Shown: positions 3,399 to 64,000 of the stretch, piece by piece
How positions within the stretch are numbered: position 1 is the stretch's first letter
How the letters are laid out: every line of letters begins with the position of its first letter
Source of the DNA: Promethearchaeota archaeon
GTDB lineage: Archaea > Asgardarchaeota > Lokiarchaeia > Sigyniarchaeales > SOKP01
Assembly: GCA_016926735.1 (NCBI GenBank)
Contig: JAFGOA010000071.1
Location: forward strand, 1 to 64,000
Direction: 5' to 3'
DNA: 64,000 bases
The notes under the pieces: generated by a model
The model's database searches: none
What the model was told of the DNA's origin: nothing
The model's input: the letters and a program-made list of their open reading frames with translations, nothing else
Translations under genes and position numbers: made by a program

Positions 3399-3716
3399 AT
3401 GACAGTTTCAAGGACATTGAGTAAAGCAATCTTAAAAGAAGAAGTAAGAATTAAATTAAAGATTTGGAATACTTTTCTTACTGGAAAATTGGCTAAATTT
3501 GATAATTTTATGAATTTAATCGTAGAAGACGCTAAGGAAATATATTTTGGAAGAGGAGGAAAAAGAAGTAAAGATCTTGGAACTGTAATGATTCGAGGAG
3601 CTTCTATTATTTTCATAGGGCAAGATCGTGAAAAATTGATTTTTGCTGCTGGTGAAACTGATGATGAGGAATTACATGATAAGTTAATGTATAGGGAAGA
3701 ACCCGAAGATATTTAA
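3399..3716 (+). CDS. Sm/Lsm-like archaeal protein (SmAP) with acidic C-terminal tail
   Basis: Sm1 'GKLAKFDNFMNLIVEDAKE' and Sm2 'LGTVMIRGASII'; directly upstream of rpl37e, the conserved archaeal arrangement. Confidence 0.9.
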   Translation: MTVSRTLSKAILKEEVRIKLKIWNTFLTGKLAKFDNFMNLIVEDAKEIYFGRGGKRSKDLGTVMIRGASIIFIGQDREKLIFAAGETDDEELHDKLMYREEPEDI

Positions 3717-4058: not shown

Positions 4059-4436
4059 TTGATAATAATTATGATAAGTAAATTACATGAAAAATTGAGA
4101 TCCATTGAACTTGTAGAAGGTGTTATAGGTACTGCTATTATAGAACGTAATGGTCTTTTAATAACATCTCGGTTACCAAGGGATATAGATGAAAGAAAAT
4201 GTGGAGCAATGGCAGCTACAATGTATAATGCGTTAGAAATGTCATTAGAATCACTAGGAAAAAAGAAAAATATTGATCATATTACCGTAGAACTCGGAGA
4301 TTATCAAATTATTATTATGGGAAGAAATGATAAATTTCTTCTTTTATCTTTATTTGAGTCAAATATTAATCTTGGAATAGCATTAATTGAAATAGAAGCA
4401 ATTATATCAAAATTAAAATTAATAATGGAAGATTGA
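4059..4436 (+). CDS. Roadblock/LC7 (LAMTOR2-like) domain protein
   Basis: 'EGVIGTAIIERNGLLITSRLP..GAMAATM..NINLGIALIE' roadblock pattern. Start probably the ATG at 4071. Confidence 0.9.
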   Translation: MIIIMISKLHEKLRSIELVEGVIGTAIIERNGLLITSRLPRDIDERKCGAMAATMYNALEMSLESLGKKKNIDHITVELGDYQIIIMGRNDKFLLLSLFESNINLGIALIEIEAIISKLKLIMED

Positions 4437-4441
4437 ATTAA

Positions 4442-5176
4442 ATGCTATCAGTTAAAGAAAAAGAAAGATATTCAAGACAAATAATATCAGAATATATTGG
4501 TGAAGAGGGACAGAAAAAGATCTCAAAGACGAAAGTCCTTCAAATAGGTGTTGGAGGTCTTGGATCTCCATGTGCACTATATTTGGTTGCTGCTGGAATA
4601 GGAGAACTCACTATTCTTGATAATGATATTGTTTCACTTTCAAACTTGCAAAGACAAATCCTCTATTGTGAAGATGATATAGGAATTAATAAAACAGAAA
4701 TAACAAAAAAGAGATTATCCAAATTAAATTCTAATGTGAACATTATTACAAATAAAGAATATGTGGATAATGATTCTATAAAAAAATACCTCAATAATAA
4801 GGATTTTATTATAGATTGTAGTGATAATATGAAGACTAAATTCTTAACGAATAAGGTTGCTGTAGAAAATAATATAAAGGCAGTTATAGCAGGCATAAAG
4901 GATTTTTATGGCCAAATAATTACAATAAATCCTCAAAAAAGTGCTTGTTATCAGTGTATTTTCAATGAACCAAAAGAAGATATAAAACTTGATTCTCCAT
5001 TACCTGTAATAGGAGTCACTCCAGGCATTTTAGGAACATTAGAAGCTTTAGAAGTAATTAAGACAGTACTAGGTCAACCAAATCTGGAGAATCATTTACT
5101 TATGGTTAATCTGTTAAATATGACTTTTAATAAGATAAAGGTAGTAAAGGACAAAAATTGTATTTGTACGAAATAG
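4442..5176 (+). CDS. ThiF/MoeB/HesA-family E1-like adenylyltransferase
   Basis: 'RYSRQ', 'GVGGLGSP', 'D.VSLSNLQRQ', 'DCSDN' and 'CYQC' motifs. Confidence 0.92.
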   Translation: MLSVKEKERYSRQIISEYIGEEGQKKISKTKVLQIGVGGLGSPCALYLVAAGIGELTILDNDIVSLSNLQRQILYCEDDIGINKTEITKKRLSKLNSNVNIITNKEYVDNDSIKKYLNNKDFIIDCSDNMKTKFLTNKVAVENNIKAVIAGIKDFYGQIITINPQKSACYQCIFNEPKEDIKLDSPLPVIGVTPGILGTLEALEVIKTVLGQPNLENHLLMVNLLNMTFNKIKVVKDKNCICTK

Positions 5177-6333: not shown

Positions 6334-6532
6334 TATTCTTATCAGTTGAAAAAATCTATTTTTTAATTTTTTGTATAAAATTTTCAAATATATAAATTCT
6401 TTTCCTTTATTGAATCCTAATTATTTATTTTAATTTTTTTAAATGGAAAATTTTTAATGAAAGGCAATCTTGGATAAAATTTTAATGATTGTCGTAATTA
6501 TAGCAAATAGATCTAGTTTTTTAAGAATAATC

Positions 6533-7750
6533 ATGGATAAATTAGAATATAATAATGAATTGGTAGAAAAATACTCTACTCTGTCAAGAAGAGTTAATGA
6601 AGAATATATAAATATTCATCCAATTCAAAGAGGAGGTCTATTAACACCTGAAGCATATAAAGCGTTAATTTCCTTTGGAGATGGATATAGTTTATGTGAT
6701 AATTGTTTGAAAGGAAGATTGGATAAAATAGAAAATCCTCCGGTAATTGATTTCTTAAACGATTGTGCAAAATATTTTAATATCGATAATATAATGCCTA
6801 CTGCTGCCGCAAGAGAATCTAAAAGGTTAGTTATAGAAGTACTTTCAAAAAGAGAACCTAAAAAACGAATTGTGATTGTTGATAGTTTATCCCATTATAC
6901 AACATATTTGGCAATTGAATCAAATAATTTAGAAGTAAGAGAAGTGCCTAATCAAGGATATCCTGAATTTAAGCTTGAACCTAAAGATTTTGAAAAGACT
7001 ATACAAGATGTCTTTAAAGAGAATGGAGAATATCCATTATTAGTCGTATTAACCCATGTAGATTACAAATATGGAAATTATAATGATCCAAAACCAATTG
7101 GAGAAATTTGTAAAAAATATGATATTCCATTTTTGCTGAATGCTGCTTATTCAGGAGGGGTTTTACCGATAGATTGCAATGATTTAAACATTGATTTTAT
7201 AGCATGTAGTAGTCATAAATCTATGGCCGCATCAGGACCTATTGGATTAGTGGGATTTAAGGAAAAATATAATAATGATATAATGGTACATTCAAAAATT
7301 CAAGGAAATCTTACATCAAAGTCATTTCCAAATAAAATTTGTACTTTAATGGGATGTCCTCCAGTATATGGTGCACCTTTGATCACGTTAATGGCAAGTT
7401 TTCCAACAATTGTAAGAAGAACTCAAAAAGACCAAGTAAAAGAAGAATCTGAAAAAGCAAATTATGTTTTAGATAAAATTAAAGAAATAGAGGGTATAGA
7501 TGTATTAGGAAAGCAACCAAAAGTTCATCCTCTTACAAATATTAAAACAAAATGTTTTGAAGAGATAGCTCAAACACATCCTAGAAAAGGATTTTTTTTA
7601 AGAGAAGAATTTAAAAATCGAGGTGTTATTGGTTTATTACCTGGTATTTCAAAAGAAATGAAATTTAGTACATATGGTCTTTCATGGAATCAAGTAAAGC
7701 ACTTTACAAATGCATTTTTAGAGATAGCAGAAAAATATCACCTTATTTAG
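6533..7750 (+). CDS. pscS: O-phospho-L-seryl-tRNA:Cys-tRNA synthase (SepCysS)
   Basis: 'NIHPIQRGGLLTPEA.KAL..FGDGYSLCDNC.GRLD.I..PP', PLP lysine 'SSHKSMAASGPIG', 'LMGC', 'K.STYGL'. Start set at the ATG at 6533. Confidence 0.93.
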   Translation: MDKLEYNNELVEKYSTLSRRVNEEYINIHPIQRGGLLTPEAYKALISFGDGYSLCDNCLKGRLDKIENPPVIDFLNDCAKYFNIDNIMPTAAARESKRLVIEVLSKREPKKRIVIVDSLSHYTTYLAIESNNLEVREVPNQGYPEFKLEPKDFEKTIQDVFKENGEYPLLVVLTHVDYKYGNYNDPKPIGEICKKYDIPFLLNAAYSGGVLPIDCNDLNIDFIACSSHKSMAASGPIGLVGFKEKYNNDIMVHSKIQGNLTSKSFPNKICTLMGCPPVYGAPLITLMASFPTIVRRTQKDQVKEESEKANYVLDKIKEIEGIDVLGKQPKVHPLTNIKTKCFEEIAQTHPRKGFFLREEFKNRGVIGLLPGISKEMKFSTYGLSWNQVKHFTNAFLEIAEKYHLI

Positions 7751-9576: not shown

Positions 9577-9834
9577 ATGACACAATATAGATTTAGATTG
9601 ACAGGAGTACCTCCTGATCAAGCAATTAAGCAAATTGAAGTTGATCCTAATCAATCAATAGCAGAAATTAAGAAAACTGTACAGAGGGAATATAAACTTA
9701 ACCCTATATTGGCAATCCAATTCATCTTTAAAGGTAAGGTACTTCCTGACGATCTAAAGTTTGCAAAAATAGGGATCCACCCAAAGAAAGATGTAATTAC
9801 CGTTATGGCAACTCAAGCAGGGGGCATTTTCTGA
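9577..9834 (+). CDS. Ubiquitin-like protein with C-terminal GG followed by two residues (GG-IF)
   Basis: 85 aa beta-grasp pattern 'IEVDPNQSIAEIKK..FIFKGKVLPDD..IGI..ITVMATQAGG'; AGGAG SD upstream. Confidence 0.85.
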   Translation: MTQYRFRLTGVPPDQAIKQIEVDPNQSIAEIKKTVQREYKLNPILAIQFIFKGKVLPDDLKFAKIGIHPKKDVITVMATQAGGIF

Positions 9835-18732: not shown

Positions 18733-19341
18733 ATGGAAGATAAATCAGCAGAAAATTTAGAGAAGGTCCAAATAGAAGGATATATTAAAAAGGGCAAAGT
18801 TTTAATCACTAATATAGATGCAGTCGAGGAGTTTTATAATACATCTTATATTGGGAATTTAGAGGAATCAGAAAATGGGAATAAAATACTGATATTAGAT
18901 CCAATGGAAGTTCTTCTTCTATGCGAAAGAAAAAGGATATTATTGTGGGAAGATAATGATAAAAACAAGACCCAATTTGACTTTGAAAAATTACTTACTT
19001 ATTTCTCTGCTTATGATGATGATTTATGGCAAAAGTATGTTATATATATGGATCTTAGAAGAAGAGGATATATTGTTCGCTCAGGTTATGGAGAAGGAAT
19101 AGAATTTCGTGTATTTAAAAGAGGTGCTGATTTTAATGAAGATTCTGCTAAATTTCTTATCTATCCTGTGTTTGAAGGTTACCCCATTGAATTACGAGAT
19201 TTAGATAAGATCTCTCGAGTAGCTTTAAGCTCACGTAAAGATTTAATTGTCGCTACTGTTGATAGATTGAGTCGACCAATATATTATAGTGTAAGGAAAT
19301 TTGAGATTCTTAATAAAGATATAAGTGGAGATAAAAGGTAG
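18733..19341 (+). CDS. endA: tRNA splicing endonuclease subunit, probably structural (non-catalytic)
   Basis: 'LDPMEVLLL', 'KYVIYMDLRRRGYIVRSG..G.EFRV', 'RVA.SSRKDLIVA.V'. Catalytic Tyr and His positions appear replaced. Confidence 0.85.
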   Translation: MEDKSAENLEKVQIEGYIKKGKVLITNIDAVEEFYNTSYIGNLEESENGNKILILDPMEVLLLCERKRILLWEDNDKNKTQFDFEKLLTYFSAYDDDLWQKYVIYMDLRRRGYIVRSGYGEGIEFRVFKRGADFNEDSAKFLIYPVFEGYPIELRDLDKISRVALSSRKDLIVATVDRLSRPIYYSVRKFEILNKDISGDKR

Positions 19342-43553: not shown

Positions 43554-45092
43554 TTAATAATTACCAAAAATCTGCGAGATATCAGTATGTAGGATTTCTT
43601 TATTTAATTCAAATTGTTCCTTTGTAACAAATAAATTCCTAAATGAGGGCAAACTTCCCAATATTGTCGCACCATTATAGATAGCTAATTGAAGATTATT
43701 GGGTATAAAGAATTTTATTCCACTTTTAGAAGAATCCGTATATTCACTAAAACCTATACTTTTTACTGTTTCTTCTTTTGCTTTTTGAATTTCATTCATC
43801 GGGATTTTTAATGCTTCAGTTTTTAAATTATTACCACAAAAAGGACAAAATACTGATTCTTTATCCTTTATTTCTTTTTTACATTTTGAACAAGTAATAA
43901 TATTACTTATTTTATCTTGTGATATGTCTATTTGAATTGTTGGCATCTCCATATTTGCACCACATTGAGGACAATTTTTAATTCCACCTGATAAGCTGAC
44001 TAATGTACCACATTGTGGACAAGTATCATTTTCTTTTTTATTTCCCTCAATTGGCTTTAATTCTTCAATTTTCTCATTTTTTTTACTGTTCTTCCCTTTA
44101 TTTTTAATAGATATACCATATTGAGGTAATAATATATTTAATTCTGCTCTTAATCTTTCTTCAAAACCACTATGCGAAAGGTTACCTCCAGAAAGTACAA
44201 TGTGAGATAAAAGAACATCCCAATATTCTTGATCAACATTCTGTAGACAGCTAATAACAGCATGTTGAATTCCAGGAGAGTTTGAACCTATCATAGAAGG
44301 AGTAAATAGTACTTCTGTTGAATTATAGAGGATATGATCAGGTATTTGTACTTTAGAACCATCAGGCATATTATATTCGATACTTTCCCCTGTTTTTGCA
44401 GGATTATTTGGATCAATTGTAAAATAACAATTCTTTTCTTTTATTTCTTTTATTATTTCTTCTACAGCAGAAGATGAAATATTTATACCTTCTCTCATTA
44501 ATAGTGTTTTAAGATTATTGCTTACATCCATACCTGCTAAATTTAATCGCTGTACAGCTTGTAAAAGGATTTGCCCGTTAATTATGGGTACAATCCATGT
44601 TAATCCATCACCACTTTCAATAACTAAACCAGTAGTAAGACCTACAGAGAAACATGAAAGAATTGGAGAAGGCACCATTAATAAATTATGAATTTGATGG
44701 GTTTCAAAAAGCACTCTTGCAATAAATTCTTTTATATCTTTTGATTGGAAAGGATCTTCAATATAAATAATTGGATAATCTAAAGGATTTTGAATTCTAA
44801 GTAGAGTATATAAAATATGATTTAAAATTTGATAATAGCTATCCCAATCCACAATTGACCCACGCTGTATTGGATGAGAAATTTTTAGAACACCTCTCAT
44901 TTTCATTGCATCTTGTCCTATATACACATTTCTTGCATCAACATCAACCATTACTGAGTGATATTTTTCAGTTCCAGTTATACAAGGAAAAATGTATCGA
45001 GGATTTACTTCTCCAGCAAATCCCACTTTAACATAAGCAGATCCAATATCAATGATGATTGGAGTCCCTGGTGTTGGTAATGACATTTTCAT
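43554..45092 (-). CDS. Actin-related protein (Asgard actin family) with double zinc-ribbon insertion
   Basis: 'IIIDIGSAYVKVGFAGE..PR..FP', 'TTGLVIESGDGLT..VPI', 'RLNLAG', 'EIKEKNCY', 'IVLSGG', 'GATILGSLPSF..FVTKEQF'. Confidence 0.93.
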   Translation of the reverse strand: MKMSLPTPGTPIIIDIGSAYVKVGFAGEVNPRYIFPCITGTEKYHSVMVDVDARNVYIGQDAMKMRGVLKISHPIQRGSIVDWDSYYQILNHILYTLLRIQNPLDYPIIYIEDPFQSKDIKEFIARVLFETHQIHNLLMVPSPILSCFSVGLTTGLVIESGDGLTWIVPIINGQILLQAVQRLNLAGMDVSNNLKTLLMREGINISSSAVEEIIKEIKEKNCYFTIDPNNPAKTGESIEYNMPDGSKVQIPDHILYNSTEVLFTPSMIGSNSPGIQHAVISCLQNVDQEYWDVLLSHIVLSGGNLSHSGFEERLRAELNILLPQYGISIKNKGKNSKKNEKIEELKPIEGNKKENDTCPQCGTLVSLSGGIKNCPQCGANMEMPTIQIDISQDKISNIITCSKCKKEIKDKESVFCPFCGNNLKTEALKIPMNEIQKAKEETVKSIGFSEYTDSSKSGIKFFIPNNLQLAIYNGATILGSLPSFRNLFVTKEQFELNKEILHTDISQIFGNY

Positions 45093-55993: not shown

Positions 55994-57058
55994 TTATTTT
56001 GTAAATGTAAAGCACGTTACAGGAGTTGCAGTTTTTATATTTTTTCCACCTGCTTCAGTAATAAATCTTAAGAACTCTTCTTTGGTAAAGAATCCATGTG
56101 CACCTTTAATTGTTTTAATATGGAGATCCATATATTTGTTTGCAAAAGGTATAAGCACTTGACCTCCGAAGATTAAGCTCCCTGGTTTAGCAACCCTAAT
56201 GATTTCCTTCAATGCTACCTTTGGATCTGTCCAGTGAAGAACTTGTGAGATATATATTATATCAAAAGTATTATCCTCGAAAGGTATGTCCGTAACGGAG
56301 CCCAATTCAAACTTTTTCGGAAAATAAGGACGATATGACTCGATTTGCTCTTTAGTATAATTCAAATGTGTTTTTAAGCGCAATTCAAATTCATTTTTAG
56401 CAATATCTAAGAGCCCTTCATCGGAATCAATACCGAAAATTTCCATATTTGTTCCTGGATAAAAGCATTTCTTTTTTTCATAGTAGCTCCAAATTACAGT
56501 AGTACCGAAACCATTTCCACAACCAACATCAAGGAATTTGCCAGTATAATTCAAAGCTTTGGAAAATTTAAAAGTAGATCCTCTTGCTATTTCATACATC
56601 TTGAGGCCTAATGCAACATCCCAATTAAATAATTGAAACCCCTTAGAAAAGCTAGGAGCACCACCTTTTAATCGCTGTGGAATCACTTTAGCAAAACTAC
56701 TTAGTACATCAACAGCTGAATCATTAAATACTTTAGGGATTGTAAATTTATCCTCAACTTCACCTATAACTTGGTATTTCGACGTCTCTTCATTAAATAT
56801 AATTGTTTCATCCTCGGTCAAAGTGTCTAGAACATATTGAAGAAATTCTCTATCTGTATACTTATAATTTTCAGCGATCTCATTAATTGTTCTTGGAATA
56901 GCAAGAAAATTAAACCAATCCTCACCTTTTTCACCGAAGACTCGAATTACATTACCTCTATAAAAGTTATATATATCACGGGTTACTTTCTTTAAAGATG
57001 CTCCTACTTTTGCAACTGATCCTATCATAAATAGATATGTATTTAATTTCTTAGACAT
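55994..57058 (-). CDS. Class I SAM-dependent methyltransferase with N-terminal winged helix
   Basis: 'FLDVGCGNG', 'IPFEDNTFD', 'LHW..P..LKE..RV.KPG'. Confidence 0.88.
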   Translation of the reverse strand: MSKKLNTYLFMIGSVAKVGASLKKVTRDIYNFYRGNVIRVFGEKGEDWFNFLAIPRTINEIAENYKYTDREFLQYVLDTLTEDETIIFNEETSKYQVIGEVEDKFTIPKVFNDSAVDVLSSFAKVIPQRLKGGAPSFSKGFQLFNWDVALGLKMYEIARGSTFKFSKALNYTGKFLDVGCGNGFGTTVIWSYYEKKKCFYPGTNMEIFGIDSDEGLLDIAKNEFELRLKTHLNYTKEQIESYRPYFPKKFELGSVTDIPFEDNTFDIIYISQVLHWTDPKVALKEIIRVAKPGSLIFGGQVLIPFANKYMDLHIKTIKGAHGFFTKEEFLRFITEAGGKNIKTATPVTCFTFTK

Positions 57059-57249
57059 ATTATCACTTCTTTTTTCTGACTTTTGGTAATAATAATCTAA
57101 TAATTTTTATATAAAAATATTGCTAGTAATAGCAGGAAAAAACAATTTAAAACACAATTTACAAAAAATTAATAGTCGGAAAACTATTATATTAAAACCA
57201 AAACCCTATTAAAAATTAACAATAAAATTCCAAAATTTATTCCAATTAT

Positions 57250-57385
57250 TAACCTTTCAGTTTGAGGAAAGGCCAGCCCTAAGGTTATCGGACTGTTCGC
57301 TTGTCACAGAGTTCAAGACATATTTTATATGTAATATCTTTCTAATTACTTCTACAGTCTTGAAGGACGTTATCCCACAATATTT
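57250..57385 (-). ncRNA. Putative structured non-coding RNA (unassigned)
   Basis: Locally GC-rich intergenic island with several perfect helices and a TTATAT box (57411-57416, minus strand) upstream. Strand is inferred from that box only. Confidence 0.45.
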
Positions 57386-57686
57386 GAAATAATATACAAA
57401 ATACTTTTAGATATAAGGATTAGATTTGAATTTTAGTTTTTATTCTGTACAATTTAAAAAATTTTTAAAAGTACGATTAAATAATCTATATCAGTTTATT
57501 TACAATTAAAAATTACTTTTTATTCATTTCTATGTTAAATACTAAAAGCACTAATTTAAAAAACAATTTTATATCTTATATTATAAATCATAAAAAAATT
57601 TTGAGAAATTATATAAAAAGTAAATTTCCTAATAGATAATTCTATAATAAAAATTTAAAAGCTATGAAAAAGAGAGTATTAAAAAT

Positions 57687-58766
57687 ATGAAACTTATAGG
57701 TTTAAATCTTGGAGGATTTTTTTCACAAGTTGATGAATATACAGAAGAACATCTGAACAATTTTATCAGAGAAGATGATATTAAACAAATAAACAATTGG
57801 AATTTTAATTGTATCAGATTACCAATTGATTTTAATTTCTTTGAAATTCAAAAAGAAGAATATAAGTATAGAGAAGATAGAATAAAAAGGATAGAAAATG
57901 TACTAACATGGACTCAGAAATACAATATGACTTTGATTTTTGATCTTCACAAAGCCCCAGGTCATACATTTGAAGCAAGAGAGGATAGAGAAAATACAAT
58001 ATGGAATATAGAATCTGAAAATAGAAAAAGATTTTTAAGAATATGGGATTATCTGGCAGAAAGATTTAAAGATCAAGAAAATATAATTTATGAAATACTA
58101 AATGAACCAGTTGCAAAAAAAGAAGATTTATGGTATAAGCTTGCTAAAGATGCTATTAAAGTTATAAGAAATAGAGATGAAAAACATGAAATTATAATTG
58201 AATCAAATTTATGGGGAAAAACAGACTGTTTTAATAGTATGCCCCTTTTTAAAGATGATAAGATCATATACAGCTTTCATTATTATCAACCTCATTGGGT
58301 TACTCATCAGACAGCGGAATGGATTGCTTTTTATATAAAAGATATACATAGAAAAAAGGAATATTATCCAGGAAAAATTGAAATACCCCCGGATAAGTAT
58401 AACATGCTTGGAGATAATTTTTATTTACAACGATTTAAAGAAGAGCATGGCTATTATTGGGATAAAGAAAAAATGTTATCAACAATACAACCAGTACTAG
58501 ATTTTAGAGAAAAATATGATGTACCAATTTTTTGCGGTGAATTTGGAATTATAGCCAAAGCAGATCCAGAAGTAAGGAAAAATTGGATTGAAGATCTGAT
58601 GGCAATTATGAGAGAAAATAAAATATCCTACACATATTGGACTTATAAAAATATGGATTTTGGGTTATTCGACTTTACTGAAAAATATAAAAATAATCAG
58701 AATTACCAAAATGAAAGAAGATTAGACGAAATAACACTAAAAGCAATTCAAAACGGAACTTTTTAA
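57687..58766 (+). CDS. Glycoside hydrolase family 5
   Basis: 'GLNLGGF', 'IRLP', 'DLH.APG', acid/base 'ILNEP', 'FHYY', nucleophile 'GEFG'; no signal peptide. Confidence 0.92.
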   Translation: MKLIGLNLGGFFSQVDEYTEEHLNNFIREDDIKQINNWNFNCIRLPIDFNFFEIQKEEYKYREDRIKRIENVLTWTQKYNMTLIFDLHKAPGHTFEAREDRENTIWNIESENRKRFLRIWDYLAERFKDQENIIYEILNEPVAKKEDLWYKLAKDAIKVIRNRDEKHEIIIESNLWGKTDCFNSMPLFKDDKIIYSFHYYQPHWVTHQTAEWIAFYIKDIHRKKEYYPGKIEIPPDKYNMLGDNFYLQRFKEEHGYYWDKEKMLSTIQPVLDFREKYDVPIFCGEFGIIAKADPEVRKNWIEDLMAIMRENKISYTYWTYKNMDFGLFDFTEKYKNNQNYQNERRLDEITLKAIQNGTF

Positions 58767-58929: not shown

Positions 58930-59523
58930 ATGAGACCAAATAAAGAAGTTATTTATTGTTTTAAAATTGTTATTTTGGGAGGAGGTGGAGCTGGAAAAAC
59001 TTGTCTTTTTAATAGATATTGTTTTAATTCTTTTAATATGAATACAGAAATGACAATTGGTCTCAATTTTCATTCTACATATTTAAATATTGCACTTGAC
59101 GAAGATAAAAGTTCAAATTCTAATGATAAATGCATAGTTAACTCCATATTTGATTTTGGAGGTCAAGAAAGATTTAAATCGTTAATTCCAAGATTATTAA
59201 ATGGTACAGATGGAGCAATGTTAGTATTTGATTTAACTAGTTACTCATCATTTCAACAATTAGAGAATTGGTATAACCTTTTAGAATCAAAAATAGGAGG
59301 AAAAATACCTATTTTATTAATAGGTAGTAAAAGCGACTTATTAAAAACTACTTCAGAAATGGAAATAGTGCAAAAAGATGTTATCCAAGAGATGATAAAA
59401 AAAAATGATTTAGAAGGTTTTTTTAAGACATCATCTTTAGAAAATTATAATGTATTAGATGCATTTAAGGAATTAAATAGGTTAATGTTGAAAAATAACA
59501 ATATCAAAGCAAAGATCGAATAG
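58930..59523 (+). CDS. Ras-superfamily (Rab-like) small GTPase
   Basis: G1 'GGGGAGKT', G2 'TIG', G3 'DFGGQERF', G4 'SKSD', G5 'TSS'; no C-terminal Cys. Confidence 0.92.
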   Translation: MRPNKEVIYCFKIVILGGGGAGKTCLFNRYCFNSFNMNTEMTIGLNFHSTYLNIALDEDKSSNSNDKCIVNSIFDFGGQERFKSLIPRLLNGTDGAMLVFDLTSYSSFQQLENWYNLLESKIGGKIPILLIGSKSDLLKTTSEMEIVQKDVIQEMIKKNDLEGFFKTSSLENYNVLDAFKELNRLMLKNNNIKAKIE

Positions 59524-62868: not shown

Positions 62869-64000
62869 ATGTCAGAAGAATTAAACAACACAAAAAAAGA
62901 AATTGGGTCAGAAAAAGAAAATAAAGAGAAGCGTGAGGATGAAGTTCTTGAGGATACAGAATCCGAAAAGGCAGTAGTAATACAAGCAGAAGTATATAAG
63001 ACTATTATTTTGTATGCCAGTCGATATGCGAATAGTGCGATTCCACCTTCCGAATGGAAAGAAATATATGGGGTCTTAATTGGCTATATTGATGATGATT
63101 TTGTTCATGTCGAAAGAGCAGAGGCTTTAACTTTCGGACATGATACGGACGTACATTTAGATAATAGACATTACACATTTATAGCTCAAATCGATGAAGA
63201 ACTTTATAATGAAGGTAAGAAAAATCATATCGTAGGTTGGTTCCATTCTCATCCAAATTTAGGTTTATTTTTTTCTGATGTAGATTTAAGAAATCATTTA
63301 TTTTTTCAAACCCATAAAGATGGAATAGGATTAGTATTTGATCATACATTATTAGGAAAAAAAAAAATAGAGAAAGTTGAGGGGACTCCACATACAATAA
63401 GTAAATATGATACGGGATTCGAAATATACAGAATAACGGATATAACTATGAATCCAGATGATCCCAAGTTTAGTGAGAATTATCATAGTGTTGATTATAT
63501 AGTGAAAGGTCTAAATAAATTCTTTTTTGCAAATGTTTTGAATGAATTATCAGCTTTAGTCAGTGCAGGAAAACCATTACAATCGGCTTATGGCGAGGAT
63601 TTTACATTAGAGTCAAACTATAGAGGTAATTCAAGTTCAAATTATAAAGACCCCGCTAAATTGTATGATAATAATACCTCTTTTAGTGAAAAAGTATTAG
63701 ATAAAATACCCATAAAAGATAATATTTCTTTCAGTGGTGATGACTTATTTTATAATAACCCTTCTAAGAAAGAAAATAAAGATATAGAAATTAGAGAACA
63801 CGCTGAACAGTTAATATTTGAGGGAACACAATATTTTGAGAAGAAAGATATTGTTGATGGTGTTGAAAGATTTGAAAAGGCAATAAAAAAATATGAAAAA
63901 ATTGGAGAAAAAGAAAAAGTATTTGAATTACTAAAAAAATTATCCGAAAATTGTATCTCAAGTGATCATTTATATTTAGCAGAAGAGTTTGCTACTCGGT
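62869..64000 (+). CDS. MPN+/JAMM metalloprotease with downstream TPR-like helices (partial, runs off the window)
   Basis: Manual translation from the ATG at 62869: 'WKEIYGVLIG..IVGWFHSHPNLGLFFSDVD..GLVFD', a complete E..HxH..S..D motif. Later 'AEQLIFEG..FEKAIKKYEK' looks TPR-like. Confidence 0.9.
   Translation, partial: MSEELNNTKKEIGSEKENKEKREDEVLEDTESEKAVVIQAEVYKTIILYASRYANSAIPPSEWKEIYGVLIGYIDDDFVHVERAEALTFGHDTDVHLDNRHYTFIAQIDEELYNEGKKNHIVGWFHSHPNLGLFFSDVDLRNHLFFQTHKDGIGLVFDHTLLGKKKIEKVEGTPHTISKYDTGFEIYRITDITMNPDDPKFSENYHSVDYIVKGLNKFFFANVLNELSALVSAGKPLQSAYGEDFTLESNYRGNSSSNYKDPAKLYDNNTSFSEKVLDKIPIKDNISFSGDDLFYNNPSKKENKDIEIREHAEQLIFEGTQYFEKKDIVDGVERFEKAIKKYEKIGEKEKVFELLKKLSENCISSDHLYLAEEFATR

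Follow-up and report, generated by a model that had tools for sequence, protein, structure and literature searches.

This study concerns a GC-rich, unannotated element at positions 57215-57454 of a 64,000-nucleotide (nt) stretch of DNA from a Promethearchaeota archaeon (contig JAFGOA010000071.1, positions 1 to 64,000), referred to below as the window. The element lies on the minus strand between a methyltransferase gene and a cellulase gene, and is probably an orphan right-end module of an IS200/IS605-type element with a TnpB-related gene, carrying the template of an omega RNA (also called reRNA), the RNA scaffold that TnpB binds. Sequence comparison gives us very high confidence that 57215-57454 is homologous to the 3′ end of Asgard TnpB-family genes. 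That the tail of this family encodes its omega RNA is the part of the reading that we infer. The element is a known kind of thing and represents no new class of RNA.

Homology of the Element to the 3′ End of tnpB Genes

The query for the protein search was the 49-amino acid (aa) translation of the open minus-strand frame at 57260-57406. A phmmer search with it against 1.84 billion representative proteins returned 10 proteins at E ≤ 1e-3, of which one, P0036, was dropped as a low-complexity repeat protein. The other nine were 52–77% identical to the query. Each match lay in the last quarter of the protein's length, and all but one of the nine were within ~25 residues of the C-terminus. The similarity of these relatives extends beyond the TGA stop codon at 57257-57259 of the window. 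When the nine proteins were compared to the window by tblastn, they aligned only to 57215-57400 on the minus strand (E 3e-11 to 6e-23), and the alignment crossed the stop. The whole fragment, 57215-57454, was recovered by hmmsearch with a profile of 105 full-length family members run against the six translated frames of 57059-57900. Profile positions 423–502 of 506 aligned to 57454→57215 at 89.4 bits (E 8.4e-29), in the minus frame only. These positions are at the 3′ end of tnpB and overlap its last codons, as the template of an omega RNA does. An earlier note on this stretch, made from its letters alone, had offered the minus strand as one option for a structured RNA in this gap, and by its homology to tnpB the element is indeed best read on that strand.

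The hmmsearch alignment crosses three in-frame stop codons. Two of them, both TAA, are in the upstream part of the fragment: the stop at 57440-57442 aligns to family residue P427, and that at 57407-57409 falls at family position 437, adjacent to the invariant W438, which is K in the window. The third is the TGA at 57257-57259, which aligns to G488 (0.95 conserved), with homology continuing beyond it. It is one base from the Gly codon GGA, the codon of the family being deduced from the protein. Two further stops, TAA at 57209-57211 and TAG at 57206-57208, are found at about the position of the family open reading frame's (ORF's) own stop. We infer that the right end of the element is near 57206-57211, because in two read-through relatives, P0033 and P0155, the sequence is common up to ~residue 505 and then diverges.

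The fragment is not evenly preserved. In its core (57215-57391, family residues 444–502), which is the proposed omega RNA scaffold, 27 of the 28 positions from residue 445 on that are conserved at ≥0.9 have been kept, the exception being G488, now TGA. In the decayed upstream part (57392-57454, residues ~423–443), which has a GC content of 0.17, two stops and a weak hidden Markov model alignment, 4 of 10 conserved positions have been kept (Fisher p 4.8e-4, for a boundary picked after seeing the data). The tail in the window matches the family consensus at 39 of 59 residues and its best single member at 45 of 59, and members on average match the consensus at 47 of 59. The additional differences of the window's copy cluster in loops and in the interior of a hairpin, P1, that is described below. 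Derivatives that carry the tail occurred elsewhere in the family. In the relative P0032, an internal deletion has brought residue ~44 up against residue ~444. ORFs of 70–104 aa that encode the tail and nothing else were found on further contigs, among them one of 11 kb and one of 93 kb; the contigs of P0028 and P0032 measure only 594 and 630 nt. These observations agree with a self-contained module that starts near codon 444 and is able to survive the loss of tnpB.

No protein is expected from the window's copy, which has lost the main part of tnpB and is interrupted by three internal stops. The gap contained no ORF of ≥40 aa starting with ATG, GTG or TTG, and a 59-codon frame on the plus strand had no start codon and no homologous protein that we could find. 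Searches for further copies inside the window gave only chance 10–17-mers (blastn-short of 57240-57400), and a repeat search of the window gave only AT-rich pairs of low identity.

Two weak matches to other parts of TnpB were noted near the element. One, to N-terminal residues 22–56, is at 57505-57597 on the minus strand (E 1, chance level), and the other, to the RuvC-I region (residues 263–309), is at 57414-57533 on the plus strand (E 0.39, not significant). Were the former real, the entire gap would amount to a miniature element with an internal deletion, as in P0032.

The Asgard TnpB-Related Family

The full-length relative P0029 (506 aa) had 309 relatives at E ≤ 1e-3, most of them 506–511 aa long. 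Among 120 listed matches to P0029, 42 carried a source name, and these came from Promethearchaeota/Lokiarchaeia, Thorarchaeota and Hermodarchaeota. Many of the named matches were annotated as “IS200/IS605 family accessory protein TnpB-related protein” or “IS605 OrfB family transposase”. Two members, P0055 and P0072, are on one 70,501-nt contig, as is expected of an insertion sequence.

By sequence and predicted structure, the associated family is of the TnpB/Cas12 RuvC nuclease type. It matched NCBIfam TIGR01766 at 33.2 bits, against a cut-off of 32, and the guided_TnpB profile over positions 1–354 of 389 (E 4.4e-10); Pfam gave sub-threshold matches only, to HTH_OrfB_IS605 and the Cas12f1-like TNB domain. 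By tblastn, the family was 28% identical to the annotated TnpB of Thermus phages (E 2e-13), in alignments that ended near residue 420–432. A search of PDB sequences with P0029 returned chance matches only. An AlphaFold model of a family protein, built from a 70-sequence alignment, had a mean predicted local distance difference test score (pLDDT) of 74.6. With this model, Foldseek found 47 PDB matches at E ≤ 0.001 with probabilities near 1, comprising Cas12f, Cas12k, Cas12m, Cas12e and other Cas12-type effectors, the TnpB of ISDra2 (8exa, 8h1j), the TnpB of ISFba1, and Fanzor2.

Residues D266, E327 and H392 are invariant in the family (P0029, P0038–P0156). There is only one Cys between E327 and H392, so that the family is without the Cys-rich zinc finger, and its third catalytic (RuvC-III) residue, normally Asp, is His. 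Passages of PMC10691335 (Altae-Tran et al., 2023) describe a TnpB clade, RIIIr-4, in which the RuvC-III Asp has been replaced by His and the C4 zinc finger is absent. The Asgard family resembles that clade in H392 and the missing zinc finger, a likeness of two motif features only. Passages on TnpB in PMC10691335 and PMC12558985 do not describe the guide RNA of this Asgard family, which is no proof of its being unpublished.

Evidence for a Proposed RNA Constraint on the Tail

Several properties of the tail suggest that it is more than a protein segment. The mean consensus frequency of residues 444–500 was 0.80, compared to 0.77 for the rest of the protein; the AlphaFold pLDDT of the tail was 30–57; and matches to distant TnpB proteins stop at ~residue 432, short of it. 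Because the tail is conserved yet modeled with low pLDDT, its predicted loops are variable and its substitutions tend to keep pairs, it probably serves at the RNA level in addition to encoding protein.

The predicted minus-strand fold has four hairpins. P0 (57364-57376, codons 449–453) is a 5-bp hairpin with the loop AAC, taken from the centroid fold. P1 (57312-57364) has an 8-bp stem, ttcaagac/gtcttgaa (57357-57364/57312-57319), and an interior with a GC content of 0.16 that encloses the 5-bp inner helix P1b, gtaat/attac (57345-57349/57331-57335). P2 (57274-57295) has 6 bp and a 10-nt loop in the predicted fold, and one of its pairs, G-U on the minus strand, would become a C-A mismatch if the RNA were read from the plus strand. 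P3 (57252-57273), which includes cctttc/gaaagg, has seven pairs here and eight in the family, and its 6-nt loop corresponds to codons 486–487. Codons in the stems are nearly invariant, and the variable positions are those of the loops and the hairpin interior. The arms of P1 are encoded by F453-K454-T455 and V468-L469-N470, which are 0.90–0.99 conserved, and the interior residues 456–467 are variable. The two P3 loop codons, 486 and 487, have entropies of 2.2 and 3.2 bits and are the most variable of the tail, whereas the codons flanking the loop, 483–485 and 488–489, are 0.92–0.99 conserved.

Pairing in the relatives was scored from the nucleotides implied by their amino acids only, with third codon positions left free. 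Each combination of a pair and a distinct sequence that allows a canonical pair was counted as a pairable cell, and registers shifted by 1–3 nt served as the control. P0 was pairable in 519 of 520 cells (fractions for the shifted registers 0.60–0.80), P1 in 814 of 832 (0.13–0.62), P1b in 472 of 520 (0.40–0.74), P2 in 621 of 624 (0.28–0.67) and P3 in 829 of 832 (0.57–0.94). Some changes were double. In P3, L484→S was always accompanied by K489→R (3/3; R489 is present in 8 of 104 sequences), which would convert U-A to C-G. In P2, A482→T/I was seen only with S477 (2/2), converting U-G to U-A. In P1, T455/V468 changed to A/A and to I/I, once each, and in P1b, M459/L463 changed to L/V in 19 sequences. 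The common single changes P477→S, A482→V and K489→R are compatible with wobble pairing. Overall, as read from these alignments, the amino acid changes in the family keep P1, P2 and P3 pairable, and some appear compensatory, which fits an RNA constraint.

The earlier note had reported five perfect pairings in this region, and all five are present: cctttc/gaaagg at 57253-57258/57267-57272, ttcaagac/gtcttgaa at 57312-57319/57357-57364, acatat/atatgt at 57318-57323/57327-57332, gtaat/attac at 57331-57335/57345-57349 and gactgt/acagtc at 57291-57296/57354-57359. Their fates in the relatives differ. The first, second and fourth are at conserved positions and correspond to P3, P1 and P1b. The other two are not kept, being pairable at rates inside or close to those of the controls, acatat/atatgt in 451 of 624 cells (shifted registers 0.39–0.82) and gactgt/acagtc in 457 of 624 (0.44–0.58). 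The latter is the helix that was supposed to compete with the 8-bp stem in a mutually exclusive switch; being specific to the window's copy, it lends that idea no support.

On the basis of these sequence patterns we think it likely that the segment is the family's omega-RNA scaffold. The module at 57215-57454 corresponds to the last ~60–80 codons of tnpB from an element family common in Asgard archaea. In the mechanism that we propose, this 3′ segment would have the two roles that it plays in characterized TnpB elements, coding for a dispensable, disordered protein tail and serving as the template for the omega RNA scaffold bound by TnpB, and the guide itself would be drawn from flanking sequence immediately past the right end. 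The GC-rich island with P0–P3 would then be the conserved scaffold hairpins. In the window, the tnpB body is missing and the frame is broken by the three internal stops, leaving no protein.

The GC-Rich Island and Its Flanking Genes

The gap in which the element lies is 628 bp long (57059-57686) with a mean GC content of 0.20. By a crude ORF mask, which was also used for this gap value, GC was 26.3% for the whole window, 28% for coding DNA and 19% for non-coding DNA. The 60-nt maximum in the gap, 0.50, starts at 57252 and is the highest among the 41 non-coding stretches listed. It equals the maximum reached in coding DNA, for which the mean is 0.28 and the 99th percentile 0.43. The island, at 47–50% GC compared to 26% for the genome, is a genuine outlier. 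The earlier note had described a GC-enriched island in an AT-rich gap of ~630 bp and had taken it for something real that was unannotated, and both the composition and the homology bear this out. The second-highest non-coding value, 0.47 at 9772, is explained by an 85-aa ubiquitin-like ORF that the mask had missed.

Downstream of the element, and on the same strand, is a gene for a class I S-adenosylmethionine (SAM)-dependent methyltransferase (55994-57058, minus; Pfam Methyltransf_11, E 2.5e-16). On the other side, and divergent, is a glycoside hydrolase family 5 (GH5; cellulase) gene (57687-58766, plus; Pfam Cellulase, E 3.5e-39). By inspection of the sequence, a TATA-like box is present at 57104-57117, ~45–60 nt from the start of the methyltransferase gene, and this box makes it likely that the gene is transcribed from a separate promoter, one that lies downstream of the element. 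A 14-nt direct repeat (12/14 identical) was also noted at 57127-57140 and 57170-57183 on the plus strand, with its copies 43 nt apart, between the probable end of the element and this box. The repeat could be the site of a regulator, or a piece of an old insertion site.

In the closest methyltransferase orthologue available to us, which is 75% identical (locus L001), the 597-bp upstream gap has unrelated sequence, and an unrelated 364-aa ORF stands where the window has the GH5 cellulase (BLASTP E 1.6). Gene order beside the methyltransferase thus differs between L001 (3212-4903) and the window (57059-58766), and therefore a rearrangement or insertion has occurred at this junction, which fits transposon activity there.

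Folding Energy and Promoter-Like Motifs

The folding energy of the element was compared to that of shuffled sequences, a control that the earlier note had called for, and the element folded no better than the shuffles on either strand. In a sliding scan of 41 windows per strand, the best z-score was −2.28 (57250-57299, minus strand), uncorrected for multiple tests, and on the plus strand z was never under −0.9.

A TATA-like TTATAT on the minus strand, ~20–25 nt upstream of the conserved core, is a possible promoter by its position. The earlier note had placed it at 57411-57416, where atataa is indeed read on the plus strand. It carries no weight as promoter evidence, because TTATAT occurs 271 times in the window compared to 254 expected. 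A scan for bacterial-type promoters was at chance level, and no terminators were found.

Alternative Explanations

A new small RNA, a switch-like leader of the methyltransferase gene (e.g., one sensing SAM) and a relic of a ribozyme or group I intron had all been suggested in the earlier note. We regard these readings as very improbable, as homology to the 3′ end of tnpB explains the element instead. The position of the element, upstream of the methyltransferase gene and on its strand, and the alternative pairings present in the window's copy would suit a leader. However, the competing helix is not kept in relatives, no such element exists upstream of the 75%-identical orthologue, and the TATA-like box at 57104-57117 suggests that the methyltransferase promoter is downstream of the element. 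A conserved leader is also unsupported because the upstream gap of L001 is unrelated, and blastn and nhmmer searches of the element against 34 loci of methyltransferase relatives returned only short AT-rich matches (best E 0.07). As to a ribozyme, riboswitch or intron, Rfam gave no match at its gathering thresholds anywhere in the window, where riboswitches, group I and group II introns, sense-overlapping transcript RNA (sotRNA), small nucleolar RNA (snoRNA), signal recognition particle (SRP) RNA, RNase P and 5S rRNA were all covered. The minus-strand echo of the group I intron R/S (P7) elements that had been remarked on was not borne out by any group I intron match. At the permissive threshold of E ≤ 10, the region 57050-57700 yielded only a chance match to snoR17 (E 3.2), at 57050-57111, outside the element.

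In archaeal genomes rich in AT, an island of high GC is often a tRNA, and the plus strand here has the word GTTCAAGAC, which resembles a T-loop. Even so, the probability that the element is a tRNA, be it split or interrupted by an intron, an attachment site derived from a tRNA, or some other known housekeeping RNA is next to nil. ARAGORN found no tRNA in the window, also with intron options or lowered thresholds, and none among 16,316 single-deletion variants of 57200-57440 from which 10–120 nt had been removed; nor did any housekeeping RNA family of Rfam reach its gathering threshold in the window. The searches with Rfam and ARAGORN thus agree with the earlier remark that the element matches no tRNA, 5S, SRP RNA or common riboswitch, and they include the search of Rfam that had been proposed, in which no known family was matched. 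Some other candidates were also set aside. A relic of a neighboring gene was rejected: when the gap was searched by blastx against 3,157 ORFs taken from the window and the fetched loci, its only match was to itself. Comparison with a collection of phage DNA gave only chance matches of 26–27 nt (E 0.5). Selenocysteine insertion sequence (SECIS), C/D-box, H/ACA and bulge-helix-bulge intron ideas were dropped by eye, as the boxes were not at the right spacing and there was no 3′-untranslated region context. A replication origin was rejected, there being no Orc1/Cdc6 among the 55 ORFs scanned with Pfam.

The identification as a module of tnpB must itself be weighed against a number of observations that count against it. 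The score of the guided_TnpB match, 39 bits, is far under the cut-off of 100, and the TM-scores of the Foldseek matches are low (0.2–0.4). By tblastn, neither an intact tnpB of the family nor any further part of the gene was found anywhere in the window (64 kb) or among the 34 loci that were fetched. The minimum free energy of 57245-57390 gave z +0.27 on the plus strand, with 112 of 200 shuffles folding as well, and z −1.07 on the minus strand, with 34 of 200 as good. For 57180-57454 on the minus strand, z was −1.52 and 11 of 200 shuffles were as good. There was no match to the sotRNA or any other family of Rfam, and no pseudoknot (for which no search was made), guide, transposon-associated motif (TAM) or element boundary was identified for the module. 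The support from pairing was deduced from the amino acids of relatives with third positions free, and the helices were derived from the window's own copy, so that the comparison of real and shifted registers favors them by construction. Of the 10 sequences that vary at T455/V468, 6 are incompatible with a pair. Several covarying residue pairs, 459/463 among them, are spaced i/i+4 in a weakly predicted helix, for which protein packing or shared descent is a possible cause, and shared descent inflates the counts of double changes.

Homology to tnpB leaves room for the copy to be either livelier or plainer than an orphan module. An active stand-alone omega RNA gene, which we consider possible but unlikely, would have its own promoter at 57411-57416, start near 57388 and end at U-tracts downstream of 57200. 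A TnpB from elsewhere in the genome would load this RNA in trans, with an extra guide taken from the DNA beside 57200. Such a gene would be consistent with the preservation of the core (27/28) relative to the upstream part (4/10), with a single core stop that is one base from GGA and leaves seven of the eight P3 pairs, and with extra differences that sit in the P1 interior and loops. The tail-only ORFs on the 11-kb and 93-kb contigs point in the same direction, as does the start of the P0032 deletion derivative at the same ~444 boundary, and trans-acting stand-alone omega RNAs are documented in passages of PMC10691335. Set against this, the TATA-like motif occurs at chance frequency, there is no intact partner tnpB in the window or the 34 loci, the tail is further from consensus (39/59) than the average member (47/59), and the 444 boundary was picked after seeing the data. 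The short ORFs elsewhere may also be frameshifted pseudogenes or the edges of short contigs (P0028, P0032). Conversely, the fragment could be a plain scrap of pseudogene, now dead, whose tail was a genuine protein segment (e.g., a binding peptide) and whose helices are by-products of codon conservation. The three internal in-frame stops, the lack of a start codon, folding no better than shuffles and the rearranged gene order near the methyltransferase relative to its closest relative are all what such a scrap would show, and AlphaFold places helices, with low confidence, at 436–448, 455–472 and 491–505 of the tail. We nevertheless find this improbable. A GC content of 47–50% is far above that of coding DNA (99th percentile 0.43), the most variable codons are exactly those of a hairpin loop and interior, and the substitutions suit wobble or compensatory pairing. 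The tail also has a pLDDT of 30–57 despite its strong conservation, and passages of PMC10097598 report that the equivalent tail of ISDra2 is disordered, dispensable and overlaps the omega RNA.

Overall, we favor an orphan right-end and omega-RNA module. The same facts are compatible with a trans-acting omega RNA kept by selection and with a moderately old relic, and we lean toward a decaying relic; that this copy is still functional appears doubtful.

Other Genes in the Window

The ubiquitin-like ORF at the second GC-rich site, 9577-9834 (plus), encodes an 85-aa ubiquitin-family protein (Pfam ubiquitin, E 2.4e-10) with a Gly-Gly three residues from its C-terminus. The same window has a ThiF/E1-like protein (4442-5173, plus; E 1.7e-65) and a JAB/MPN protease (62869-63997, plus; E 2.7e-16). 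These three genes are components of an Asgard ubiquitin-like modifier system. Eukaryote-like genes typical of Asgard archaea were also observed, at 43554-45089 (minus), 58930-59523 (plus), 4071-4433 (plus) and 3399-3713 (plus), with 18733-19338 (plus) in the same list. The eukaryote-like set comprises an actin-family protein (511 aa, with a sub-threshold zinc-ribbon C-terminal region), a Ras/Rab-like small GTPase, and Roadblock/LC7 and LSM proteins; a tRNA-splicing endonuclease is encoded as well. Together they speak for the Asgard (Promethearchaeota-like) origin to which the relatives of the methyltransferase had pointed. A pyridoxal phosphate enzyme of 421 aa (6485-7747, plus) matched both Aminotran_5 (E 1.3e-17) and SepSecS (E 4e-16). 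If this enzyme is SepSecS, the organism may use selenocysteine. Neither gene flanking the element needs a SECIS element.

Meaning of the Element and Comparison with Known TnpB Guide-RNA Systems

An apparent orphan RNA has here been traced to transposon debris of a well-understood type, which gives no grounds for listing a new RNA family or riboswitch. The more general lesson is that translating a non-coding island and searching with the protein can uncover conserved RNAs or transposon ends that escape searches by DNA or by RNA family. The analysis also locates the probable site of the omega-RNA scaffold for a large, uncharacterized Asgard TnpB family (~506 aa, at least 309 members) and shows that the family has tail-only and internally deleted derivatives, which together offers a starting point for reconstituting these nucleases. 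A bolder idea is that the element is a living, independently transcribed guide-RNA gene, used in trans by a TnpB without a zinc finger and with His in RuvC-III, its guide being read just upstream of the methyltransferase promoter. We think this rather unlikely; if it were true, the element would offer a first look at the working of RNA-guided TnpB systems in the archaea most closely related to eukaryotes, and perhaps a case of RNA-guided influence on a neighboring gene.

Known systems provide a measure for the module. According to passages of PMC12558985, the sense-overlapping transcripts of tnpB 3′ regions in archaea now count as omega RNAs. The module is similar in that its RNA would be read in the sense orientation across the end of tnpB, and differs in having no Rfam match at E ≤ 10 and in belonging to another clade and host phylum. 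Stand-alone omega RNAs that have been mobilized and work in trans are described in passages of PMC10691335. Like these, the module is without an adjacent effector or transposase gene; it differs in that its match to the TnpB N-terminus (57505-57597) has an E-value of only 1, so that a complete miniature element cannot be claimed. The resemblance to deletion derivatives of IS200/IS605 elements rests with P0032, an internally deleted relative in the same family.

The best-characterized comparison is with ISDra2 of Deinococcus radiodurans. The module has no sequence or Rfam similarity to the ISDra2 reRNA, its protein family has His for the RuvC-III Asp and no zinc finger, and it stands alone in the window without tnpB and is known from its sequence, whereas the scaffold of ISDra2 has been characterized. 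Passages of PMC8612924 describe the ISDra2 reRNA as comprising the 3′ end of tnpB and the right end, with the last ~16 nt coming from the flank; those of PMC10097598 describe the C-terminal domain that overlaps the omega RNA as disordered and dispensable, and the two together give a scaffold of several hairpins and ~120–230 nt in total. The likeness is in architecture. In ISDra2 the RNA template covers the final codons of tnpB together with the right end, as would the template proposed here, and the window's module spans codons 444–506, or ~190 nt, with four predicted hairpins and a protein tail modeled at low confidence.

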